A stretch of 64,000 nt of DNA from Candidatus Nanoperiomorbaceae bacterium (GCA_049297855.1 JBAQVB010000006.1:1958-65957), one strand, 5' to 3'. Shown: positions 3,187 through 61,099, counted from the stretch's first letter. A program made the numbers and translations. Notes: a model not told the origin generated them from the letters alone.

Positions 3187-3600
3187 ATGTTACAACCAAA
3201 GAAACTGAAATTCCGCAAAACCCGTAAGGGCCGCAATCCAGGCGTCGCGACACGTGGCGATTACGTCGCGTTTGGCGATTACGGTTTGCAGAGTCTGGAT
3301 AACGAGCGCATTACGGCGCGCCAAATCGAAGCTGCTCGTCGCGCTATCAGTGGTCACACTAAGCGCGGTGGTAAAATTTGGGTGCGTATTTTTCCGCACA
3401 CGCCAGTTACTAAAAAACCATTGGACGTTAAGATGGGCTCCGGTAAAGGTTCGCCTGAATTTTACGTGGCGAAGGTTAAAATAGGCACCGTGATGTTTGA
3501 AATTAACGGCGTCAGTGAGGCGACGGCGCGCGAAGCGATGCGCCTCGCATCCAACAAACTGCCGGTAAAAACGCGTTTTGTCGCGCGGGAGGAGGCATAA
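3187..3600 (+). CDS. rplP: 50S ribosomal protein L16
   Basis: ORF 3136..3600 trimmed to ATG 3187 ([11 protein letters not shown], the canonical L16 N-terminus), which sits just after the rpsC stop at 3183-3185. Confidence 0.93.
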
Positions 3601-3900
3601 ATGGCTGAGAAAAAATTAACCACGCGCACCGCGGTGGCCAAAAAAGCGGCAACTGCGTCCGTGACAGCCAAAACTGTCAAAAAAGATGTCGCCAAAACCG
3701 CTAAAGATCTACGCGCACTTAGCGAAAATGATTTGCAGAAAGTCCTGGCAACCGCCAAAGCCGATCTGTTAAACGTTCAGAAAATGTTAAAAGCCAATGA
3801 ACTGCCGAACACGGCGGTCGTTAGAAAATCGCGCAAAATGGTTGCGAAAATCCACACCATTTTGACCGAAAAAATTAATCAAGGAAAGGAGCAAAAGTGA
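3601..3900 (+). CDS. rpmC: 50S ribosomal protein L29 (about 30-aa N-terminal extension)
   Basis: 99-aa ORF between L16 and S17. The C-terminal two thirds are L29-like (LRALSENDLQK...LKANELPNT...RKSRK). Confidence 0.85.
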   Translation: MAEKKLTTRTAVAKKAATASVTAKTVKKDVAKTAKDLRALSENDLQKVLATAKADLLNVQKMLKANELPNTAVVRKSRKMVAKIHTILTEKINQGKEQK

Positions 3901-5778: not shown

Positions 5779-6180
5779 ATGTCAATGCAAAGTACAGATC
5801 CAATCGCTGATATGTTAACGCGAATCCGTAACGCCATCAGCGTGGGCAAAAATGAAGTGCGCATGCCGCACAGTAACTTGAAGGAAAACACCGCCAAGGT
5901 ATTGGCTAAAAACGGTTATCTGGCGAAAGTCAGCGTCGCCAAGGCGTCGCCGCGTGATGAATTGGTGATTTTAATTAACCAGGAAGGCGAAAATGCCGTG
6001 ATTACTGAAATTTCGCGCATTTCCAAACCTGGCCGTCGCGTTTACGCCAGTGTCGATGAAATTCCGAAAGTTAAAAGCGGTCGCGGTATCGTGATCGTGT
6101 CGACCTCAAAAGGTTTGATGACTGGTCGTGAAGCTATTCGCGCCAAACTGGGTGGCGAGCTGGTTCTCAAAGTTTACTAA
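5779..6180 (+). CDS. rpsH: 30S ribosomal protein S8
   Basis: 133 aa. DPIADMLTRIRNA motif. Confidence 0.96.
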   Translation: MSMQSTDPIADMLTRIRNAISVGKNEVRMPHSNLKENTAKVLAKNGYLAKVSVAKASPRDELVILINQEGENAVITEISRISKPGRRVYASVDEIPKVKSGRGIVIVSTSKGLMTGREAIRAKLGGELVLKVY

Positions 6181-6197
6181 ACGAGTAGCGTGTCTCA

Positions 6198-6232
6198 AAT
6201 CGCGAACGCCAATTCAGCATTCGCGATTTTTT
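6198..6232 (+). terminator. Rho-independent terminator after rpsH
   Basis: Perfect 9-bp stem AATCGCGAA/TTCGCGATT (6198-6206 / 6220-6228) with a 13-nt loop, followed by a T-run. Confidence 0.7.
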
Positions 6233-6280
6233 GTATCTTATATTTGGCTCAGATCAACAAATTTGCTAAACTATAATAGC

Positions 6281-8821
6281 ATGAGCTTTTATAAAAAAAC
6301 TGTAACGGAAACTTTACATGAAATAGATTCGTCGCGCGATGGCTTGACTAATCGCGAAGCTGCGCGCCGGCTGAAAAAATTCGGTCTTAACGCCATCGAG
6401 CTGAAACACTCGTCGTTATTTAAAAAAATCATTGAGCCGTTTGCCAGTTTGATGATGGGCGTGTTGGCATTAGCCGGAATTTTGAGTATTTATCATCACG
6501 AATACATCGACGCGGCGATTGTTTTCGCGATGATGACGACTTCCGCCGTGATTGATTGGGTTCAGCAATACTCGACCGCCAGGATTTTACGGGCATTGAA
6601 ACAGCGTGAAACCGATCCGGCGGAAGTTTTGCGCGATGGTAGTGTGACGGACGTGGATCCGGAAAAATTAGTGGTCGGCGACGTTATTGTCATGCATGAA
6701 GGTCAAAAGATTCCGGCCGATGCGCGCGTTATCGAGGATGATAACTTGCAGGTCGATGAATCAGTTTTGACCGGTGAGAGTTTGGTGGTTCACAAATCCG
6801 ACGACACATTCTCCGCGCACGACGACAAGGAAATCTATGAACAAACCAACATGCTGTTTTCCGGTAGCTTTGTGGCGACGGGTTCGGGAGTTGCAGTCGT
6901 GGTAGCGACCGGCAACCAGACCGAATTTGGTAGCATTGCCAAATTGGCGCAACCTTCGTCCGACAATAAAAGTTCTCTACAACGAAAAGTTGACAAAATG
7001 ATGCGTTACGTGATTATCGCGGTGTTCGGCGTGGTGGCCATAGCCTTTCTGATTGAGTTGGCGCGTGGCGTGAATTTAGTCGACGCCTTGAAATTCGTTT
7101 TAGCCATGGCGGTGTCGGCCGTTCCGGAGAGTTTGCCGGTCGCGATCACAGTGGTGGCGGTGTTTGGTATGCGCCGAATGGCTAAGAAAAAAGCCTTGGT
7201 GCGAAGCATGCGGGCAATTGAGAATCTCGGCCTCGTAACGACTATTGCCACCGACAAGACCGGCACTTTGACGGAAAATAAATTACGCGTCCAAATGGTT
7301 TGGGCGCCGAATCTGCGATTATCGAGTTTTCTTTCGGTGGTGCGGCGCAGTTTAAATCGAGTGGCGGGACAAAACGCCGATCCATTGGACGGCGCGCTGG
7401 AAAATTATATTAACGAGCAGCCCGCTCAGGCTGGCGCTACGACCGATAATGATTTGGTGGAAAATTTGCCGTTTGATTACGAATTCGCCATGAGCGGTAA
7501 TATTTGGCGCTGTCGGCAAAATTTGGAATTATGCATTAAAGGTGCACCAGAAAAAATTCTATCCAGTTGCCGAGTTTCGCCAGAAATTAAGCGTTTGGCT
7601 GACGCGAAATTGCATACTTTTGCGCGCGAAGGTTACCGCGTAATCGCGTTTGCTAAAATGTCGCTAGAGCATAGTTTTGATGACTTTAGTCGTTTTCCGC
7701 GCAATGAAAAAGCGGTTTTCATCGGTTTTGCCGCCATCGCCGATAATTTACGCGTAGGTGTTGATCACGCCGTTTTGGATGCTCAGCGTGCCGGCATCGA
7801 AGTACGCATGATCACCGGTGACCATCTGGAAACGGCCGTCAGCATCGCTCGCCAGGCCGGCATTGCCGATTCGGAAAACGAAGCCGTTGATGCGCATCAG
7901 CTGAATTCGGCAGATACTTCGGAATTTTCCGAACGCGTTGAGGCCGCTAAAGTGTTTGCGCGTGTCCTGCCGGAAACGAAATACAGCATCGTCACTGAAT
8001 TAAATAAAGGAAATGTCACCGCGATGACCGGTGACGGTGTTAACGACGTGCCAGCACTAACCCGGGCCAACGTCGGCGTGGCGATGGGATCGGGCGCCGC
8101 GATCGCTAAGGATGCTGCCGACATGGTGCTGCTCGATAATAATTTCAAATCGATCGTGTCCGCCGTGCGTGAAGGTCGCATTATTTTCTCGAACATCCGG
8201 CGCATGATGGTTTATTTGATTGCGACCAACGCTGGCGAAGTTTTGACGACGCTGGGCGCGCTAATACTTGGGTTACCGTTGCCGCTGCTGGCGGTACAAA
8301 TTCTATGGATCAATCTGGCGACCGACACGTTTATGACGTTGCCACTTGGTCTCGAGGCCGGAGCGCCGGACATCATGCGTCAGCCGCCCAATAAAACCAA
8401 TGCGCCGCTATTGACCGGCTATCTGTTGTCGCGCGTGATCGTGGTGGCGGTCGCGATGGCTGTCATCACGCTCGGAGTCTATGTCATATTTTGGCGCTGG
8501 CATGGTGTAGAGGTGGCGCGCGGTGCGGCCTTTTTGACGCTAATCGCAATTCAATGGGTCGATGCGTTCGTTTTACGTGGCGAGGAATCGTTCGCCAAAT
8601 TATTTACACATAAAAACACCGCGTTCATGTTGGCGTTCATTGGAACGTTCATTTTACAAACTATCATGTTGATCACGCCACTCAGTCGCGTCATGCAAGT
8701 CACAGCGGTGCATGCGGACGCCTGGATTGCCTGTTTGATCGGCGCGATCGTCATGTTAACAGTGGTGGAAATTCACAAATCGATCGGCCGACGGGTGGCT
8801 CACAATGAACGCGATGACTAA
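6281..8821 (+). CDS. Cation-transporting P-type ATPase (type II, Ca2+/Mg2+-like)
   Basis: ORF 6128..8821 trimmed to ATG 6281 (MSFYKKTV...). Has the DKTGTLT phosphorylation motif, TGDGVNDVPAL hinge and TGES actuator motif, with multiple C-terminal TM helices. Confidence 0.9.
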   Translation: MSFYKKTVTETLHEIDSSRDGLTNREAARRLKKFGLNAIELKHSSLFKKIIEPFASLMMGVLALAGILSIYHHEYIDAAIVFAMMTTSAVIDWVQQYSTARILRALKQRETDPAEVLRDGSVTDVDPEKLVVGDVIVMHEGQKIPADARVIEDDNLQVDESVLTGESLVVHKSDDTFSAHDDKEIYEQTNMLFSGSFVATGSGVAVVVATGNQTEFGSIAKLAQPSSDNKSSLQRKVDKMMRYVIIAVFGVVAIAFLIELARGVNLVDALKFVLAMAVSAVPESLPVAITVVAVFGMRRMAKKKALVRSMRAIENLGLVTTIATDKTGTLTENKLRVQMVWAPNLRLSSFLSVVRRSLNRVAGQNADPLDGALENYINEQPAQAGATTDNDLVENLPFDYEFAMSGNIWRCRQNLELCIKGAPEKILSSCRVSPEIKRLADAKLHTFAREGYRVIAFAKMSLEHSFDDFSRFPRNEKAVFIGFAAIADNLRVGVDHAVLDAQRAGIEVRMITGDHLETAVSIARQAGIADSENEAVDAHQLNSADTSEFSERVEAAKVFARVLPETKYSIVTELNKGNVTAMTGDGVNDVPALTRANVGVAMGSGAAIAKDAADMVLLDNNFKSIVSAVREGRIIFSNIRRMMVYLIATNAGEVLTTLGALILGLPLPLLAVQILWINLATDTFMTLPLGLEAGAPDIMRQPPNKTNAPLLTGYLLSRVIVVAVAMAVITLGVYVIFWRWHGVEVARGAAFLTLIAIQWVDAFVLRGEESFAKLFTHKNTAFMLAFIGTFILQTIMLITPLSRVMQVTAVHADAWIACLIGAIVMLTVVEIHKSIGRRVAHNERDD

Positions 8822-8824
8822 TAA

Positions 8825-8926
8825 CGCAACGTATTATCGCGTTATCGTGGCGGCATTTTATTAGTGTCGCACGACGAAGAGTTTGAGCAACACGTCGGCG
8901 CGGAAAATTTGGCGATTTGCGGGTAG
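8825..8926 (+). pseudogene. Relic of an ABC-transporter ATPase C-terminus (H-loop fragment)
   Basis: Start-less open frame RNVLSRYRGGILLVSHDEEFEQHVGAENLAICG*. GGILLVSHDEEF resembles the ABC H-loop region (..VSHD..F). No Walker motifs lie upstream. Confidence 0.45.
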
Positions 8927-9300
8927 AATGCGTAATGAAACCGTTTTCGCAATGTAGTGAATGTGATTAAACTGTAAATTGACGCAAATGCTCATTAAAG
9001 TGCAGACGCGCTTCACGATAGTATTAATTTAACTAGCATTTTGGCAAAAGATAGCCCCGCTAGATAATTTGCCCGAAACGGCGTTAATACCGGGCGTATA
9101 TACTAGATTCATGCTACCGGATGGGGCGCAACTATAATCTTGATAAATATGGATATGCGTTGAGTTTAGATCATAGCTCATGCCACCACTACCAACATTA
9201 TATATGTATACTTGATCTGTAGGGGTAGATAATTGACCTATATAGGCTCCCAAATTACCATCATTGGAACGGGCACTCGCGGTTGTGTTAGCTATCCAGT

Positions 9301-9306
9301 GGGGGG
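9301..9306 (-). repeat. C6 homopolymer (coding strand) at the frameshift point of pilin copy 1
   Basis: Plus strand reads GGGGGG. With 5 C the reading becomes ...SSPHWIANTTASARSNDGNLG..., continuous with ORF 9029..9322. Confidence 0.8.
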
Positions 9307-9544
9307 CTAGACCGAACAGCATAGCCGCTTATGCTCCCTTGATTGTCTACTTTATATGACTCAATGGCACTCACGACTTTGCCGACATTTTGCCTAACTG
9401 CCGTATCCTTTTGCGAATTTTGTAACGCTGGCCACGCAATGAAAACAACCAAAAATATTAAACCAGCAATCGCTAAAACCAACGCAACTTCAATTATCGT
9501 AAAACCTGAATTTGAACCTTAAGTTACAGTTGAACGTCCAGATC

Positions 9545-9564
9545 CTCTCTCTCCCTCTCTCTCT
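9545..9564 (-). repeat. (CT)4-CC-(CT)5 tract, which is (GA)n on the coding strand of the pilin copy 1 leader
   Basis: Read directly from sequence: cctctctctccctctctctctt. Encodes QEREGERG. Confidence 0.8.
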
Positions 9565-9868
9565 TGCTGGATCATGTTTTTCTCCTTCTTTTTCATACTT
9601 TTTCGTGCCGTCCAGTTAATCACAAGCGAGATAGCGTGTCAAGCGTCTATGGTTTTTTCGGCGAGTTTTATTGAATTTACTATGCTATCTCATTGTGTTA
9701 TGGCAACGATTGGCGATCAATATGGTTATTTGCTTTTCTGTTTCACGTATGCTACAATAAATCAGTAAATATCAAGCGAGTAAGGTTAAATATAAACTTT
9801 GCGACTCTATTTTCACAATAGAACAGAGATATATCTCTTATTTTACGCGCATAAAAGGAAAGGACGAA

Positions 9869-10414
9869 ATGTCAAGAATCGGAAAACTACCGGTCGTAAT
9901 TCCGGCTGGTGTGACAATCACGGTTGATGATGATTTCATCACAGTCAAAGGGCCAAAAGGCGAATTGAAACAATTCACTTTGCCAGAAGTTAAAGTTAAG
10001 GTTGATGGATCGGAAGTTCAATTAACGGCCATCGACAACAGCAAGATCGCCAACAGCCGTCACGGCCTGATGCGCGCGCTGATCCAAAATATGGTGATTG
10101 GCGTGAGTCAAGGTTTCGCGAAAAAGCTCGAAATTAATGGTGTCGGTTTTCGACTCCAGAGCAAAGGTCCGCAGGAAATCGAAATGGCGCTCGGGTTTAG
10201 TCATCCGGTTGATTACAAAGCGCCCGACGGTGTTAACCTAGACGTTGATACCAAAGGTCACATGTGGATCACGGTTAGCGGCGCCAGTAAACAACAGGTT
10301 GGCCAAGTTGCGGCGGAAATTCGCGCGCTCAAAGCGCCGGAACCCTACAAAGGAAAAGGCATTAAATACGCCGACGAAACGATTCTTCGTAAGGCGGGAA
10401 AGACAGGTAAATAA
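9869..10414 (+). CDS. rplF: 50S ribosomal protein L6
   Basis: 181 aa. MSRIGKLPVVIP start. SD-like AAAGGAAAGGA upstream. Confidence 0.96.
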   Translation: MSRIGKLPVVIPAGVTITVDDDFITVKGPKGELKQFTLPEVKVKVDGSEVQLTAIDNSKIANSRHGLMRALIQNMVIGVSQGFAKKLEINGVGFRLQSKGPQEIEMALGFSHPVDYKAPDGVNLDVDTKGHMWITVSGASKQQVGQVAAEIRALKAPEPYKGKGIKYADETILRKAGKTGK

Positions 10415-17461: not shown

Positions 17462-20400
17462 GTGACAATGAAGCGTAATTGGCAGCAACGAAACGATGGG
17501 CGAAAACACAATAATGGAAGTGTGCGACATAAAGTGATGTTACGCGCGAGCGCGACAGTGACGCGAATTATACAATTACTAAGCTCTGGTCGATCACGGA
17601 CTATGGTCGCGGTCGTGATCAGCGTCGCAGTTGTGACGGTGCTTGTTGCATTGAGTGCTGGCGGCGACACTAAAGTGTATGGGGCATCCGGTAGCGGTGG
17701 AACCACTATGACATGTTATGACTGGTGTGATACTAGCGCCGGTTATGGCGTATCAACTTTTTATATAGACCGTCCCTATCTGCTAGTCAATAACCCCAAC
17801 CCAGCTGGAGACAATAATATTTGTTGGTACGTCGATAAAACTACTGGGCGAACGTCTAATGATTGTATTGCGTCACCTGATAGTCCAAATAAAGGTAGTA
17901 ATTCCTGTTGGCAAATGTGGCAAACATGCTTCGGCTATACGCTAAAGGGAGTTGGAACAACCGCGTATAATGCTAATCTGGCAGAGGCAGAGAATTCGTG
18001 TCGAGCTGAAGGATCTAACGCTATTACATACGCTTATGTTATGAGCGTACATCCGGGTATTCCACCTGTACCGTGGCCATTCGCGGCTGGCAAAATTGAC
18101 GAGAGTCCGCCAGCTCCAAGCTGGGGTCAGACAGATCAATCAAATCAAGGTTTGGCTTGGTTTTGTAACTCCGTTGGTTCCAATGCATGGTCATCCGCTG
18201 GCAACATGCATGTTGATAACCATTACATTGGAGGTCGCAACTGGTCGTATTTGGATCGTCAAGGTAATCCGGCCAACGGCAACACTATGGTCTTTAGCCC
18301 TGGTCAGACTGCGGTTTGGTCCAGCCAAATTTGGACAAGTGCGGCTTTTCCAAATCACCGTGAAAATTGGTTCCAATGGTGGACGGATAAATCTGGAGAT
18401 TGGTCGGGTGATATCGCTTCAGGGATAGTCGACGACACTGGCACTAATGCAGGTAGCGGGATCGGCGTCTATCCGCCAGACGCAAATTCGGGACCGACTG
18501 GGTTCAGCTATGGTATCAGCAATAGTGATGCCGGTAAGACGCTTTGTAATCGCTTACGTTGGGGATGGACTGACAGCAACGGGAATTGGGCGAATCCAGA
18601 TAATTACAAAGCTTGTGTCCTGATTAATTACGCCACCTACGGCGGGAATAATCGTATTTCCACTCAAGTTACAGCCACGAATAAGACATCGAACGCAAAA
18701 ACCAGCACCAAATCGGTGGATAGCAATGGCACAAGAAGCGGATCGGATGAATGGGTGAACGCTTATCCTGGTGATAACGTCCAGTGGGACTACCTGACGA
18801 CGAATTGGGACACGCGATATCCAACGGCCTATGATTTTAGAACCGGTTTCTATAAAACTGATTGGTATCCTAGTGGCGGTTCGCGCGTATCGAACTTTAC
18901 CCGAAAATATGGTCAATTAGGAGCAGGGGCTAGCACGTCTTGGTCGGATTCATTTCAGATTATCCCAGCTTGGGGAGGCAAAAATATTGATGAGTATTCC
19001 TCATTCCACTGGGATCCGCATTGGGCTGATTCGGGATACACCGGTTTAACTGCCCGTGCCGGCTTCCATGTTCCGTATAATTATCAAATCAAAACCACCG
19101 GAACGGGCACGCTAACTACCAATACATCCGGACAATCAAGCTGTGATGATAACCACGTGACGGTCGGAACAAATTCATCGCTGAGTTGGACATTGAGTGC
19201 AAGTACTCCGGTTGCTGGCCACGCCGCTACAAATTCCAGGCCAGTTTCCTGGAAGGTAATAGACGGAGCCGGAAACCCAGTAGCTGTGACGGCAACCCGT
19301 GGCGGCACTGCGGTCTCCTCGCCAATGGTTTTTCAACCTATGGATAAGATCACGATTACGCTTAATTTGCCGGTTCAATCTGTGGCTGGCAATGTATTGG
19401 CATATCGCCTGATAGTTAACGACGGTGCATCAGGACCGTCTAGTACGTCCGTAGTGGAAACCGACTCAGACAACGTAATATCCAGCGTAAGTAACACGTC
19501 ATCTTGTGCTGAAAGTGCCAAATCACCATCGATTCAGGTCGACGGCGCGGATAGTCGGGCTAATAGGAACTTTACAGGCGCTAGCGGTTCGCACGTCGCA
19601 ACCAACGGATCCTGGTCGCAATATGGTCTCCTGGCCAACGGCAACATCAATAATTTCGGTTCGGCGGGATATGTTGATAACGGCGACAATAATTCGTGCA
19701 CGTTACGTTTCGCCAACGTTGGTAACAGTGGGGGTAGCAACTGCTCGAGAGCGTTTGGCTCGCCAGGGAATTTTGGCAATCCGTTTAAACGAAATTTGCC
19801 AATGGTCATCGGTTCGAACAGTAATAGCAGCGACATTTTCGCTGGAGCCTCGCCCCAAAGTTGGGATAGCAACGGCGGGCCCCTATGGTCAAGCTCGGGT
19901 TGCGTAACGCCGCACGCCGATCTAGGCTATCTCCAGGTACCGGGCGTCTATCGATACAGTGGGGGACTTCAGATTGCAGGTGGTAGCACTGGCTGTTCCG
20001 GTATGTTTGGCACTCGCACTTACACTGACCAGATGCATGGCAACTATATAATCTACGTGAATGGCGACGTGACCATAGCAGACAACATTAATCTAGAGTA
20101 TGGACTTTCACCTGGTTCCAAAGCCTATGGATCGCTTTCCAACATCCCGCAATTTACTATTTATGCCACAGGTAATATTAATATCAATTCCAACGTCGCC
20201 CGTATTGATGCCAACCTAGTGTCGCAAACTGGCACGGTCAACGATTGTGCTAATGGCCCTGCGGGATCGGGTGTGGGTGCAGATCCTAGTTATAGAGAAA
20301 ATGGTGCGTGCGGTAACCAATTAGTTGTTAACGGAGCAATTTCAACCAATACTACGCCGCGTTTGCGTCGTACTTATGGCGCGGAGTTAGCGACAGAACA

Positions 20401-20572
20401 AGGGCAAGATGCTTGTCGTGGCGGCGTCAACATGGACTATGCCTCTCCGGCTGAATGCATCCGCTACACGCCGAATCTATACTTGGTGCCAGCCTTCACT
20501 TCGCAACAAGATAGCGCCGGCAACCAGAATTGGCAAACCACCGATGAAACGAGTTTGCCCGTGCGATATTAA
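17462..20572 (+). CDS. Large orphan membrane-anchored, presumably extracellular Cys/Trp/Asn/Gly-rich protein
   Basis: 1036-aa ORF. Basic N-terminus followed by one TM segment (MVAVVISVAVVTVLVALSAGG). About 20 Cys and many Trp. I recognise no known domain. Start is GTG 17462 or ATG 17468. Confidence 0.75.
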   Translation: MTMKRNWQQRNDGRKHNNGSVRHKVMLRASATVTRIIQLLSSGRSRTMVAVVISVAVVTVLVALSAGGDTKVYGASGSGGTTMTCYDWCDTSAGYGVSTFYIDRPYLLVNNPNPAGDNNICWYVDKTTGRTSNDCIASPDSPNKGSNSCWQMWQTCFGYTLKGVGTTAYNANLAEAENSCRAEGSNAITYAYVMSVHPGIPPVPWPFAAGKIDESPPAPSWGQTDQSNQGLAWFCNSVGSNAWSSAGNMHVDNHYIGGRNWSYLDRQGNPANGNTMVFSPGQTAVWSSQIWTSAAFPNHRENWFQWWTDKSGDWSGDIASGIVDDTGTNAGSGIGVYPPDANSGPTGFSYGISNSDAGKTLCNRLRWGWTDSNGNWANPDNYKACVLINYATYGGNNRISTQVTATNKTSNAKTSTKSVDSNGTRSGSDEWVNAYPGDNVQWDYLTTNWDTRYPTAYDFRTGFYKTDWYPSGGSRVSNFTRKYGQLGAGASTSWSDSFQIIPAWGGKNIDEYSSFHWDPHWADSGYTGLTARAGFHVPYNYQIKTTGTGTLTTNTSGQSSCDDNHVTVGTNSSLSWTLSASTPVAGHAATNSRPVSWKVIDGAGNPVAVTATRGGTAVSSPMVFQPMDKITITLNLPVQSVAGNVLAYRLIVNDGASGPSSTSVVETDSDNVISSVSNTSSCAESAKSPSIQVDGADSRANRNFTGASGSHVATNGSWSQYGLLANGNINNFGSAGYVDNGDNNSCTLRFANVGNSGGSNCSRAFGSPGNFGNPFKRNLPMVIGSNSNSSDIFAGASPQSWDSNGGPLWSSSGCVTPHADLGYLQVPGVYRYSGGLQIAGGSTGCSGMFGTRTYTDQMHGNYIIYVNGDVTIADNINLEYGLSPGSKAYGSLSNIPQFTIYATGNININSNVARIDANLVSQTGTVNDCANGPAGSGVGADPSYRENGACGNQLVVNGAISTNTTPRLRRTYGAELATEQGQDACRGGVNMDYASPAECIRYTPNLYLVPAFTSQQDSAGNQNWQTTDETSLPVRY

Positions 20573-29782: not shown

Positions 29783-30305
29783 ATGATGAAAATCGCAAGA
29801 AATCACGGACGAGTTAGTTTCCCTAAACTAAAAACATTACCCCCCCCCACGATCTAGCGGCTTCACTATAATTGAGGTAGCGTTAGTCTTAGCTATAGCC
29901 GGACTTATTTTCCTGGTAGTGTTTATCGCCTGGCCAGCACTACAGAATTCGCAACAAAACCAGGCCAGGCGTCAGGACGTCGGGCGAGTGATAAGCGCAT
30001 TGGAAGCATATAAGATGGACCACCAGGGACAATTCCCACTTGGTGGATGGTATAAATCAGATGGTTCAAGTAGTAACCGGGAATACAATTTCTCAAACTA
30101 TACTAACAAGCTCTCCCAAATATACAATATTGAGGTCTTTGACCTAGGCACTTCTACTTGGAGAGCTATGGGTAGCGCGCGAGATATCAATGTAATTCCC
30201 GGCAGAGTTTGTCCTGGCGACGCTCGTACACCAACCTCGGATAACGCTGCGGTAGAAGTGGGACTTGTCGGCAACGGCGACGCCAACTATTGCCAGTCGC
30301 TATAA
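29783..30305 (+). CDS. Type IV pilin-like protein, copy 2. The reading frame is interrupted at the poly-C tract in the leader (frame OFF as assembled).
   Basis: ATG 29783/29786 gives MMKIARNHGRVSFPKLKTLPPP.. and stops at TAG 29855-57. Body frame runs from GGC 29859: G|FTIIEVALVLAIAGLIFLVVFIAWPALQNSQ... to stop 30305. C-terminal Cys pair present (C...YC). One C fewer restores the frame. Confidence 0.8.
29840..29848 (+). repeat. C9 homopolymer within pilin copy 2 leader codons
   Basis: Counted directly: 9 consecutive C. Confidence 0.95.
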
Positions 30306-41517: not shown

Positions 41518-42049
41518 ATGATTAGCGATAAATCCATTGCGACGACCAAAACATCTGCAGACATAAACGAGAATACCCCCCCACCGAGCTAGTGGCTTCA
41601 CCATTATCGAGGTAGCGTTGGTTTTAGCTATCGCTGGGCTTATCTTTCTCGTGGTATTTATCGCCTGGCCAGCGTTACAAAATTCGCAAAAAGATACGGC
41701 GTTACGTCAGGATACCGGCCGCATCGCCAGCGCCCTGGAGTCAATAATGGTGGATAATCAAGGAGAGCTAGACACTCATCTTGTTTCTTCCACGATTCAA
41801 AACTATGCTGGCAAGTTAAGTGTTATTAATAATATTCGGGTGTTACCGTGGTGGTCAAATAAAGCTAATAACATGCTAAATCATAGCACGGCGGTAGTTT
41901 ATGACAACGCAAGCTGCCCACTACATCTCGGTTCTAGCAACCAAAACACAAATCCAATATTTGGCTTTTCTAATAGCAGTCCAATAATAAATGGCGCCGC
42001 TGTCGTGGTTTGGCTCAACTCTGGCGCCTTGTACTGTGTAGGAGTGTAA
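41518..42049 (+). CDS. Type IV pilin-like protein, copy 3. The reading frame is interrupted at the poly-C tract in the leader (frame OFF as assembled).
   Basis: ATG 41518 gives MISDKSIATTKTSADINENTPPPS and stops at TAG 41590-92. Body frame runs from GGC 41594: G|FTIIEVALVLAIAGLIFLVVFIAWPALQNSQKD... to stop 42049. C-terminal Cys pair (SCPL...LYCVGV). One C fewer restores the frame. Confidence 0.8.
41576..41582 (+). repeat. C7 homopolymer within pilin copy 3 leader codons
   Basis: Counted directly: 7 consecutive C. Confidence 0.95.
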
Positions 42050-42126
42050 TATTATATCGTGCAAACAATTCGCGAACATCTTACAGAGTTGAGCCGTGCA
42101 ACACGCTCGCATAGTCCAGCAAAAAA

Positions 42127-42135
42127 TGCTAAAAT
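42127..42135 (+). promoter_or_regulatory. Extended -10 (TGcTAAAAT) 6 nt upstream of the trpS ATG
   Basis: Sequence motif only. Confidence 0.45.
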
Positions 42136-42141
42136 AGATTT

Positions 42142-43191
42142 ATGAATGATTACAAAAAAATCATCTTAACTGGTGATCGCCCTACTGGAAAATTACACCT
42201 TGGCCATTATGTCGGCAGTTTACGCAACCGCGTCAAACTCCAAAACAGCGGTGAGTATGAAACTTTCATCATGATCGCCGACACGCAGGCGCTGACCGAT
42301 AATGCACACGATCCGGAAAAAATTCGCGATAATTTGTTGAATGTGGCGCTCGATTACTTAGCGGTTGGCGTCGATCCGACCAAATCAACCGTCTTTATTC
42401 AGAGTGCGATTCCGGCATTACCCGAACTGACGACGTATTATATGAATCTAGTGTCGCTGAATCGTGTATTGCGTAACCCAACGGTCAAAACCGAAATCGA
42501 GCAAAAACAGATGGGCGAGAGTGTCCCGGCCGGTTTTGCCATGTATCCGGTGTCGCAGGCGGCCGACATTACGGCTTTTCGTGCCACGCACGTGCCAGTC
42601 GGCATCGATCAAGAGCCGATGCTTGAACAAACACGCGAAATAGTGCGGGCGGTCAATTCAACTTACGGTGCCGATTTATTGGTCGAACCCGAAGGCGTTT
42701 TCCCAACCGACGAAACCGCGAAGCGTTTACCCGGCCTGGACAGCAACGCCAAAATGTCCAAATCTCTGAATAACGGAATTTATCTATCCGACGACGAACA
42801 GACCTTGCACGATAAAGTTTTCAGCATGTACACCGATCCGCGCCACGTCAAAATCAGTGATCCGGGACACATCGCCGGTAACACGGTTTTCACTTATCTC
42901 GATGTTTTCGCGCCAATGACGAAAAATGTCGAGCGAAATCTGGCCAAAGTTGCCGAACTAAAATCTGCTTACCAAAAAGGCGGCCTGGGCGATGTTGCAA
43001 CTAAGCAATTTTTGTTCGAAATTTTGAACGAAATTTTAACGCCGATTCGCCAACGTCGCGCCGAATTCGCCAAAGATACTGCCAAAGTTTACGAAATTTT
43101 ACGCGCCGGTAACATGCGCGCCAACACAGTCGCGAACCAAACATTGCATAACGTTAAAACCGCGATTTTCAGCGACAAATATTTAGGATGA
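42142..43191 (+). CDS. trpS: Tryptophanyl-tRNA synthetase
   Basis: 349 aa. TGDRPTGKLHLGHYVG (HIGH region), KMSKS present, AD.QALTD region. Confidence 0.93.
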   Translation: MNDYKKIILTGDRPTGKLHLGHYVGSLRNRVKLQNSGEYETFIMIADTQALTDNAHDPEKIRDNLLNVALDYLAVGVDPTKSTVFIQSAIPALPELTTYYMNLVSLNRVLRNPTVKTEIEQKQMGESVPAGFAMYPVSQAADITAFRATHVPVGIDQEPMLEQTREIVRAVNSTYGADLLVEPEGVFPTDETAKRLPGLDSNAKMSKSLNNGIYLSDDEQTLHDKVFSMYTDPRHVKISDPGHIAGNTVFTYLDVFAPMTKNVERNLAKVAELKSAYQKGGLGDVATKQFLFEILNEILTPIRQRRAEFAKDTAKVYEILRAGNMRANTVANQTLHNVKTAIFSDKYLG

Positions 43192-60417: not shown

Positions 60418-60484
60418 GCAGCTTCCTGTGCATTTATTCTATCACACGAAAGGTAAATTTGCATTTCTATTCCACTTGTGCTAA

Positions 60485-61099
60485 ATGAATGGCATAATGA
60501 AGATAGCCAAAAATAATACCCCCCCCCGAGTTTCGGTAGAGAATAAGATTGGAGAGGGAGGCAATCAGCGCGGTTTTACTGTTATAGAGGTCGCTCTGGT
60601 TTTGGCCATCGCTGGTCTGATTTTCCTTGTCGTTTTCGTCGCTTGGCCAGCGCTCCAAAATTCGCAAGCGGATACGGCCAGGCGGCAAGATGTCGGGATC
60701 GTTATCAGGGCTATTGATTCTTACAGATTGGATGCATCCAACGGTGGCTGGTTTCCAGCCTGGCGAGGGGTATATCTAAATGGCAACCGCCAGTCGCTTT
60801 CCTTTGGCCCCTATCTTCAAGGACTATCCAGCAACACGCAGTTTGTTTACATTCGCGCGGGTAATAATCCTGGCTCGAATTGGACTTACAAAGATTCTCT
60901 CTCGTCTGGAAGCGTAACCAGCAATGCTACTACATCTGATTCCGTCCCGTCCATGAATGGTATTTCGGTATATACTGGTGCGGAATGTGGAAATGGTCAA
61001 TCAATGATTGCGCTGGGTGACCCAGCTGTAAATCCGACACATATTGCGGTTGTAATTCGATTATCTTCTGGAATTTATTACTGTCAACAAGCCTACTAG
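60485..61099 (+). CDS. Type IV pilin-like protein, copy 4 (frame ON through a C9 tract)
   Basis: 204-aa intact ORF: ...MKIAKNNTPPRVSVENKIGEGGNQRG|FTVIEVALVLAIAGLIFLVVFVAWPALQNSQ... with a C-terminal Cys pair (AECGNG...IYYCQQAY). The likely start is ATG 60497 (MKIAKN, parallel to MKIARN in copy 2). Confidence 0.85.
   Translation: MNGIMKIAKNNTPPRVSVENKIGEGGNQRGFTVIEVALVLAIAGLIFLVVFVAWPALQNSQADTARRQDVGIVIRAIDSYRLDASNGGWFPAWRGVYLNGNRQSLSFGPYLQGLSSNTQFVYIRAGNNPGSNWTYKDSLSSGSVTSNATTSDSVPSMNGISVYTGAECGNGQSMIALGDPAVNPTHIAVVIRLSSGIYYCQQAY
60519..60527 (+). repeat. C9 homopolymer within pilin copy 4 leader codons
   Basis: Counted directly: 9 consecutive C, read as T-P-P-R. Confidence 0.95.

Follow-up and report, generated by a model that had tools for sequence, protein, structure and literature searches.

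The window analysed here, a stretch of 64,000 nucleotides (nt) from a Candidatus Nanoperiomorbaceae bacterium (GCA_049297855.1, JBAQVB010000006.1:1958-65957), carries four type IV pilin paralogs, termed copies A, B, C, and D, with the Gly codons of their prepilin motifs located at 29859 (+), 41594 (+), 60572 (+), and 9506 (-), respectively. Copies A, B, and C each contain a pure run of cytosines, the length of which fixes the reading frame in all three copies in silico. Slipped-strand translational phase variation of the pilin leader region appears to be the best explanation of this arrangement and is favoured here with moderate confidence, with direct support confined to copy C, the only locus at which both ON and OFF alleles are seen.

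The poly-C tract and start codon of copy C

The copy C tract comprises nine cytosines (C9) at 60519-60527 on the + strand, read as the codons ACC CCC CCC CGA to give T-P-P-R. The open reading frame (ORF) at 60485-61099 encodes 204 residues, with the translation MNGIMKIAKNNTPPRVSVENKIGEGGNQRG-FTVIE... unbroken to the stop codon at 61097-61099, confirming both the T-P-P-R reading and the intact ORF described in the original prediction. Simulated loss of one cytosine (C8) yields MKIAKNNTPPEFR followed by a TAG at 60537-60539, rather than at 60534-60536 as first placed, and simulated gain of one cytosine (C10) yields MKIAKNNTPPPSFGRE followed by a TAA at 60544-60546. Both simulated alleles stop within 3–6 codons to leave a product of 13–16 residues, in agreement with the expectation that single-nucleotide changes run into nearby stops, with a simulated C12 tract returning copy C to frame.

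The start codon of copy C is probably ATG 60497, which opens the peptide MKIAKN, and not ATG 60485. The latter forms the 3' end of a -10-like box in a putative promoter element (60459-60487, +) consisting of TTGCAT (60459-60464), a 17-nt spacer, and TAAATG (60482-60487), and is replaced by ATT in the strain contig L002 (SRR33541911), where the -10-like box reads TAAATT. The upstream layout of copy A matches that of copy C (TTGCGT, a 17-nt spacer, TAAAAT, 6 nt, and ATG), and no Shine-Dalgarno sequence precedes the ATG of copy A or ATG 60497 of copy C, with nearly all nearby housekeeping genes having AAGGAG. The likeness of MKIAKN to MKIARN of copy A (copy 2 of the original prediction) is real, with the K, I, and A codons of the two start regions (MKIA[RK]N) differing synonymously, which argues that this region is translated. 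It is this synonymous difference, together with the ATT in L002, the overlap with the -10-like box, and the lack of a Shine-Dalgarno sequence, that favours ATG 60497, and the NCBI protein MFZ2560122.1 (copy C) likewise begins at MKIAKN. The copy C mRNA is thus probably leaderless-like, with ATG 60497 used. Consensus promoter scans did not call the upstream boxes of the pilin copies, and the promoter and leaderless reading comes from manual comparison only. A TGcTAAAAT box 6 nt before an ATG, again with no Shine-Dalgarno sequence, is found at 42119-42144 upstream of a tRNA synthetase gene (42142), giving this gene the leaderless-like layout of pilins A and C, with ribosomal protein genes having AAGGAG.

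From ATG 60497, the region predicted to encode the leader (a class III signal peptide) extends over 60497-60574 (+; MKIAKNNTPPRVSVENKIGEGGNQRG), with the Gly(-1) codon at 60572-60574, and the predicted mature pilin spans 60575-61099 (+; 174 residues and stop; FTVIEVALVLAIAGLIFLVVFVAW...), with two paired Cys residues near the C-terminus (AEC...YYC). Two other roles for the tract were considered and rejected. In copy C, a fold in which the C run pairs with GGAGAGGGAGG further 3' scores no better than shuffles (z = 0.45), and a G-quadruplex role of the kind known for Neisseria pilE is discounted because the single template-strand G9 cannot form an intramolecular G-quadruplex.

Identity of the copy C product and of its source organism

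Judged from its sequence, the product of copy C is a type IV prepilin. The motif G-FTVIEVALVLAIAGLIFLVVFVAW places Gly at position -1, Phe at +1, and Glu at +5, followed by a hydrophobic segment of ~20 residues, as expected for prepilin cleavage and methylation, and the protein scores 21.8 bits against Pfam PF07963 (cut-off 21.2) and 20.9 against NCBIfam TIGR02532 (cut-off 16.3). The AlphaFold2 model of copy C (predicted local distance difference test score of 73.5) consists of a helix over residues 29–79 and then a beta domain with seven strands. A Foldseek search of this model against the PDB returned zero matches with E < 1, and the sole match of the copy C profile to PDB sequences is a weak one to a Geobacter pilin N-domain (E = 3.5e-3). 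The C-terminal Cys pair is present in copies A, B, and C, and in the shifted frame of copy D, with C164 and C196 invariant or nearly so across 55 homologs. The 26-residue leader of copy C would be cut by prepilin peptidase; type IV pilus machinery proteins (prepilin peptidase, assembly ATPase/platform) are absent from the window's 20 largest ORFs.

MFZ2560122.1 is the exact copy C protein, from a metagenome-assembled genome (MAG) labelled Candidatus Nanoperiomorbaceae. The source organism is a Saccharibacterium, a Nanoperiomorbaceae-like episymbiont, as all 80 related genomic loci belong to that phylum. Its lineage is poorly represented, with RpoA at most 76% identical to any NCBI-named match, and the species of the window is absent from the GTDB representatives. 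Exact-protein look-ups gave no match for the 204-residue and 200-residue forms of copy C, the L10 protein, the 179-residue neighbour of copy A, or P0030.

Poly-C runs against the background of the window

Only three C runs of at least 6 nt occur in the 64 kb (C9 at 29840, C7 at 41576, and C9 at 60519), with a single G run of this length (G6 at 9301-9306), and each of these falls within a pilin gene and reads as C on its coding strand, all other runs being no longer than 5 nt. Under a first-order Markov model, 0.02 runs of C9 or longer would be expected in the window. CCC is a rare-to-middling Pro codon (11.5% of Pro codons), CCC-CCC is not used for any of the other 12 Pro-Pro dicodons in 43 long ORFs of the window, and the codon phase of the poly-C run differs from copy to copy, which together argue that the homopolymer is a nucleotide-level feature and not a peptide motif. 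This codon usage lends support to the earlier suggestion that the homopolymer itself is selected. The tracts are uninterrupted, far longer than the background, and placed such that they switch the frame, as expected of a slipped-strand contingency locus.

Tract length among near-identical strains

Contigs of other strains, from other sequencing runs and 98.2–100% identical to the window, were retrieved by exact-protein look-ups of neighbouring genes. The copy C tract, C9 and in frame in the window, is also C9 in L086 (SRR29761461; protein P0001, with the full leader), C10 and out of frame in L002 (gene caller product of 165 residues), and at least C11 in L001 (SRR7457760), which stops inside the tract after 11 C. 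The flanks of copy C are 98.2–99.8% identical among these assemblies, and the differing tract lengths at near-identical loci show that ON and OFF alleles both exist at locus C. Copy B has C7 in the window and in L116 (SRR28060973), and C10 in L003 (SRR7457760) and L005 (SRR25400331), varying only inside the OFF register, and copy A has C9 in all three of the window, SRR28060973, and SRR7457760 (L108 and L109). Compared with a point divergence of 0.2–1.8%, the tracts of copies B and C are the faster to change, in length. Two contigs end inside repeats (L001 in the tract of copy C, and L114 in the (AG)n of copy D), giving only indirect hints of heterogeneity within populations.

Differences beyond the tracts were also observed. 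In L003 (SRR7457760), pilin B has an unrelated segment of ~300 nt in place of its central part (3398-3699 against 41764-42008 of the window), with ends and flanks ~99% identical; this mosaic allele suggests recombination between pilin alleles and is the only hint of recombination. Pilin C (60572-61096) differs from that of L086 by ~11 residues and an indel (AGNNPGSNW vs GVSAGSNW), with the surrounding 5 kb 98.2% identical, and copy A shows two non-synonymous and no synonymous changes relative to L108 and L109. The pilin globular domains seem to be fast-evolving.

The pilin paralogs

All four paralogs contain GFT(I/V)IEVALVLAIAGLIFLVVF(I/V)AWPALQNSQ, with divergent C-terminal domains. Over the first 37 codons, pairs of paralogs differ by 17–24 synonymous against 1–5 non-synonymous changes, an excess which indicates that the paralogs are old, have not been recently homogenised, and are all kept under purifying selection. 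The bodies of copies A, B, and C are open for 148–175 codons, and on this comparative evidence the OFF copies A and B are not long-dead. Gene conversion from silent promoterless cassettes, as in Neisseria pilE/pilS, does not describe this family, as no copy lacks a leader, an N-terminus, or promoter-like upstream sequence of its own; the paralogs differ at 22–31% of N-terminal DNA positions, mostly synonymously, which argues against recent conversion at the pilin N-termini.

Copy A (29783-30305, +) begins at ATG 29783 and comprises the leader MMKIARNHGRVSFPKLKTL, the tract (C9 at 29840-29848, +, 10 nt 5' of the Gly codon), the Gly codon at 29859, and a mature pilin of 148 residues. At C9, copy A is out of frame with its ATG (...KLKTLPPPTI and stop), and would be in frame at C8 or C11. 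Copy B (41518-42049, +) begins at ATG 41518, with the leader MISDKSIATTKTSADINENT, the tract (C7 at 41576-41582, +), the Gly codon at 41594, and a mature pilin of 151 residues, and is out of frame with its ATG at both C7 and C10 (at C7, ...NENTPPPS and stop), with C6 and C9 being the in-frame lengths. At C7 and C10, the body of copy B is instead in frame with ATA 41573-41575, which is the start chosen by the NCBI Prokaryotic Genome Annotation Pipeline (PGAP; MPPHRASG-FT).

Copy D (9029-9575, -) is a disrupted pilin with a Shine-Dalgarno sequence, ATG at 9573-9575, and Gly codon at 9504-9506. Its leader contains an in-frame TAA (9519-9521) five codons before the Gly and a variable (AG)n repeat (9544-9565), and the frame changes past a C6 run in the body (+ strand G6, 9301-9306), with the C-terminal half and the Cys pair lying in another frame to ~9029. 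L112 has 8 nt more of the (AG)n repeat, within which contig L114 stops; C5 or C8 at the internal run would rejoin an intact C-terminal domain (...YSCAPSG...IFCQNAS).

The four paralogs are scattered through housekeeping genes. Copy C lies between dcd and rplJ, copy B after rpsI, and copy D before rplF, with a flavodoxin-like gene on one side of copy A and a tRNA methyltransferase gene on the other. The pilin paralogs are placed at the edges of ribosomal protein operons, and at 6128-9869 a ribosomal protein cluster is interrupted, just upstream of rplF, by a P-type cation ATPase (897 residues) and pilin D.

Tract position and leaders in relatives

The tracts lie within the ORFs at 22 nt (copy C), 57 nt (copy A), and 58 nt (copy B) 3' of the ATG, with 44 nt separating the tract from the Gly codon in copy C and 10 nt in copy A, so the tract does occupy different points of the leader in copies C and A, as had been noted. 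The proposal that the tracts were independently gained or moved is unsupported. In L009, the nearest species with available DNA, CCCCCCtCCCtCCC-GAGTTT stands where copy C has C9-GAGTTT, and this shared tract and 3' flank (Cn-GAGTTT) in another species indicates that the tract position of copy C is ancestral; the L009 tract is interrupted, which would stabilise it. Copies A and B have a second tract position, 10–11 nt 5' of the Gly codon, and their 3' flanks at this position are homologous (0 of 2000 shuffles as similar). The flanks of the copy C tract show no significant similarity to those of A or B, and common ancestry of all three tracts is not demonstrable in this way. Two tract positions therefore exist, and separate gains cannot be told from leader indels.

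Our scan of genome contigs gave 80 loci, nearly all with short leaders and no tracts, and that of metagenome contigs gave 21 loci, mostly short-leader pilins, two of which have an interrupted C5TC3. Most Saccharibacteria pilins have leaders of 5–13 residues (MKKSQKG, MKKTEKG), a 5' untranslated region with a Shine-Dalgarno sequence, and no homopolymer, with long leaders (16–60 residues) found in a clade labelled Nanoperiomorbaceae by NCBI and in many unnamed ENA and Logan sequences. PP or PPP is present in 20 of the 55 homologs with a leader of at least 16 residues, compared with 1 of 88 short leaders, and PP is 5.7-fold over-represented. Close relatives differ by one Pro (...NTTPQQ, ...NTTPPQQ, ...NITPPPQQ), consistent with 3-nt tract steps, as expected among in-frame survivors, and the upstream leader peptide is conserved among relatives (MK.IKN...KNTTPP). 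Some relatives begin just 3' of the tract, with M for L (MTDKKLYF vs ...SLTDKKLYF), which the out-of-frame relative L115 shows to be the start assigned by a gene caller to an out-of-frame allele. The NCBI homologs P0003, P0034, P0037, and P0045, all from Nanoperiomorbaceae MAGs, are annotated as partial, with starts inside the leader or directly past it, suggesting that assemblies often break at leader repeats.

Proposed mechanism and alternatives

Copy C belongs to a set of at least four dispersed paralogs, all pilins with nearly identical N-terminal helices and divergent globular domains. In the mechanism proposed here, the pure poly-C run inside its unusually long leader-coding region would form a hot spot for slipped-strand mispairing. 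By gaining or losing one C in replication, the tract would take the pilin body out of register with the upstream ATG or bring it back, and so turn the pilin OFF or ON in a heritable, reversible way. In the state captured by the window, copy C would be ON at C9, with A and B out of frame with their ATGs, and bet-hedging over the displayed pilin is the likely role. We infer replication slippage as the cause of the length changes, and likewise the reversibility and switching rate of the tract and the ecological role of the switch. The description of copy C as the one ON member holds within the 64-kb window, where it alone is in frame with its ATG, but does not extend to the whole genome. The idea of a phase-variable paralog family stands in so far as the tract sets the frame and copy C has ON and OFF alleles, but copies A and B are never in frame.

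Several observations weigh against this mechanism. Copy A is in frame with its ATG in none of three assemblies (all C9) and copy B in none of four (C7 or C10), and a profile search of 5.8 billion database proteins with reconstructed ON versions found no full-length A or B product, the matches being truncated products only (P0241, of 143 residues, and P0242, of 105 residues and corresponding to copy A). The copy A tract is invariant across three strains, every out-of-frame allele lies in one register (ON length +1), the two B alleles differ by exactly 3 nt, the L003 allele of copy B has an in-frame TAG, and copy D is clearly broken. Furthermore, only 3–4 assemblies are available per locus, and these are phylogenetically non-independent. 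The single register and the 3-nt step of copy B would also fit a selected alternative reading, and the TAG in the L003 allele and the broken copy D suggest that some pilin paralogs may simply be decaying. It is the single out-of-frame register, the 3-nt step in B, and the invariant A that keep our confidence moderate, and for copies A and B switching is only a possibility, with leaky decoding and decay as the alternatives.

Leaky decoding, acting instead of or on top of DNA switching, would allow alleles of ON length +1 to give some prepilin through +1 ribosomal frameshifting of peptidyl-tRNA-Pro on CCC-C or RNA polymerase slippage, with the tract tuning the level instead of turning expression off. 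Slippage at long homopolymers is well established. Frameshifting by +1 at CCC codons is a documented behaviour of tRNA-Pro elsewhere (PMC5009743). All eight out-of-frame alleles would need one skipped nucleotide (A at C9 in three; B at C7 in two and C10 in two; C at C10 in one), the register of copy B is kept by its 3-nt step, and the OFF copies are under purifying selection, all in favour of leaky decoding. However, the independent events are few (~4–5), such that chance or an insertion bias could suffice, the 0-frame stop lies at least two codons past the run, in contrast to its adjacent position in the CCC_UGA sites known, RNA folding predicts no stimulatory structure near the copy C tract (z = 0.45), and copy C is in frame in two of four assemblies, so that a shift is not obligatory; on balance, we consider leaky decoding unlikely. 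It is rather unlikely that only copy C works, with A, B, and D as decaying pseudogenes and the tract differences as neutral noise at a fragile sequence under no selected switch. Such decay would account for A and B never being seen ON, for the in-frame TAG in the L003 allele of B, and for the leader TAA and body frameshift of copy D, but sits poorly with the strong purifying selection over the first 37 codons in A, B, C, and D (17–24 synonymous vs 1–5 non-synonymous), the open bodies of 148–151 codons with the Cys pair in A and B, the restriction of pure C runs to pilin genes and their use of the rare CCC codon, and the presence of the trait in many relatives.

Decidedly improbable is initiation at a near-cognate ATA abutting the tract on its 5' side, in the register one nt longer than that of the ATG, by which copy B (C7/C10) and copy C at C10 would both be expressed weakly, from a short leader. 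The PGAP protein MFZ2560102.1 (P0272, 158 residues) does begin MPPHRASGFTIIE, ATA lies directly 5' of the tract in both B and C, the C7 and C10 alleles of B both keep the ATA frame, and the resulting 8-residue leader fits the 5–13 residues usual in Saccharibacteria. AUA is, however, a very poor initiator in the bacteria studied, no Shine-Dalgarno sequence lies 5' of the ATA, copy A at C9 lacks an in-frame near-cognate codon, and the ATG-initiated leader peptide is conserved in relatives (MK.IKN...KNTTPP) and differs synonymously between A and C. That the homopolymer lengths are sequencing or assembly errors, with all copies truly in frame, is essentially excluded. Homopolymers are error-prone on some platforms and one contig breaks inside a tract, but the out-of-frame lengths recur across runs (A at C9 in three; B at C7 in two and at C10 in two), as does C9 of copy C (in two), and the recurrence of the A and B lengths in independent Illumina-based assemblies indicates that these lengths are real. 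The prospect, raised with the original prediction, of all loci falling in frame after error correction is not borne out by these assemblies.

A three-state device is also conceivable, as every out-of-frame allele lies in the register with one extra C, although we regard it as unlikely. In register 0 the ATG would drive full expression, in register +1 expression would be low, and only register +2 would be truly OFF. The low expression could come from tRNA-Pro +1 slippage on CCC-C, polymerase slippage, or initiation at the abutting ATA. If true, this would couple the choice of pilin paralog to translation physiology (elongation factor P, tRNA-Pro modification) in a minimal-genome episymbiont.

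Comparison with known systems

The slipped-strand phase variation favoured here for copy C has its closest likeness in pilC of Neisseria gonorrhoeae and N. meningitidis, in which piliation is turned on or off by frame changes at a G/C homopolymer within the 5' coding region (Jonsson et al. 1991, as cited in PMC5953494). Both involve a homopolymer of ~9 or more nt near the 5' end of an ORF, an ON/OFF frameshift, and a property of type IV pili, and pilC tract lengths are likewise polymorphic among strains and the pilC paralogs switch independently. In contrast to pilC, which has a Sec signal peptide and encodes a tip/adhesin protein, the tract described here lies in pilin genes and in a class III (prepilin) leader, the organism is an episymbiont of the Candidate Phyla Radiation (CPR), and the switch is a predicted one.

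The Bordetella fim2, fim3, fimX, and fimN genes carry a poly-C "C-stretch" in the promoter (Willems et al. 1990; PMC1891110). As in the pilins, paralogous subunit genes (of major fimbriae in Bordetella) each have their own poly-C tract with strain-dependent length, and interrupted, stabilised tracts are found in relatives, with C6TC3 and C9TC8 in B. parapertussis resembling CCCCCCtCCCtCCC in L009. However, the Bordetella tract alters transcription from the promoter of chaperone-usher fimbriae, whereas the tracts here lie 22–63 nt 3' of the ATG and alter the frame of type IV pilins; with starts at 22, 57, and 58 nt 3' of the ATG, in an ORF where the start regions of A and C differ synonymously, they are not promoter C-stretches of the Bordetella type. 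The Neisseria opa genes, with CTTCT/CTCTT pentamer repeats in the region coding for the leader peptide (PMC5953494), similarly form a multi-copy surface-protein family with a repeat in the leader-coding region of each copy, the opa copies being independently switched, but there the repeat is a pentamer and the products are outer-membrane proteins, as opposed to a homopolymer and pilins.

Within Saccharibacteria, pili of the PilA1/PilA2 systems of N. lyticus TM7x are needed for host binding and motility, with no phase variation reported in that study (PMC12206443). The pilins described here share with ordinary Saccharibacteria pilins, such as those of TM7x, the GFT(I/V)IE N-terminus, a predicted "lollipop" architecture, and several paralogs per genome, and differ from those of most species, which have short leaders, a Shine-Dalgarno sequence, and no homopolymer. 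The searchable literature contains no report of pilin phase variation or of a simple-repeat contingency locus in Saccharibacteria or the CPR; the mechanism itself is known, and its occurrence in Saccharibacteria pilin genes appears undescribed in that literature.

For attachment and motility in host-attached Saccharibacteria and CPR, type IV pili are the organelles with the best support (PMC12206443, PMC9894109), and a hypermutable pilin switch, if true, would offer organisms with tiny genomes a cheap means of varying the displayed pilin. Possible uses of such a switch include bet-hedging over host range, escape from recognition by hosts or phages, and immune evasion in animal-associated lineages. 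The tracts also affect annotation, with gene callers truncating pilins (105, 143, and 165 residues) or giving odd starts (ATA, in the NCBI record), and assemblies breaking at tracts.

Other features of the window

Ribosomal protein L1 (57426-58475; 349 residues) is extended at its N-terminus by ~115 residues, rich in Ala and acidic residues, that precede the L1 domain. A response regulator and two histidine kinases are encoded upstream of a long ORF (17462-20572), whose 1036-residue product matches nothing in Pfam at E <= 1e-5.

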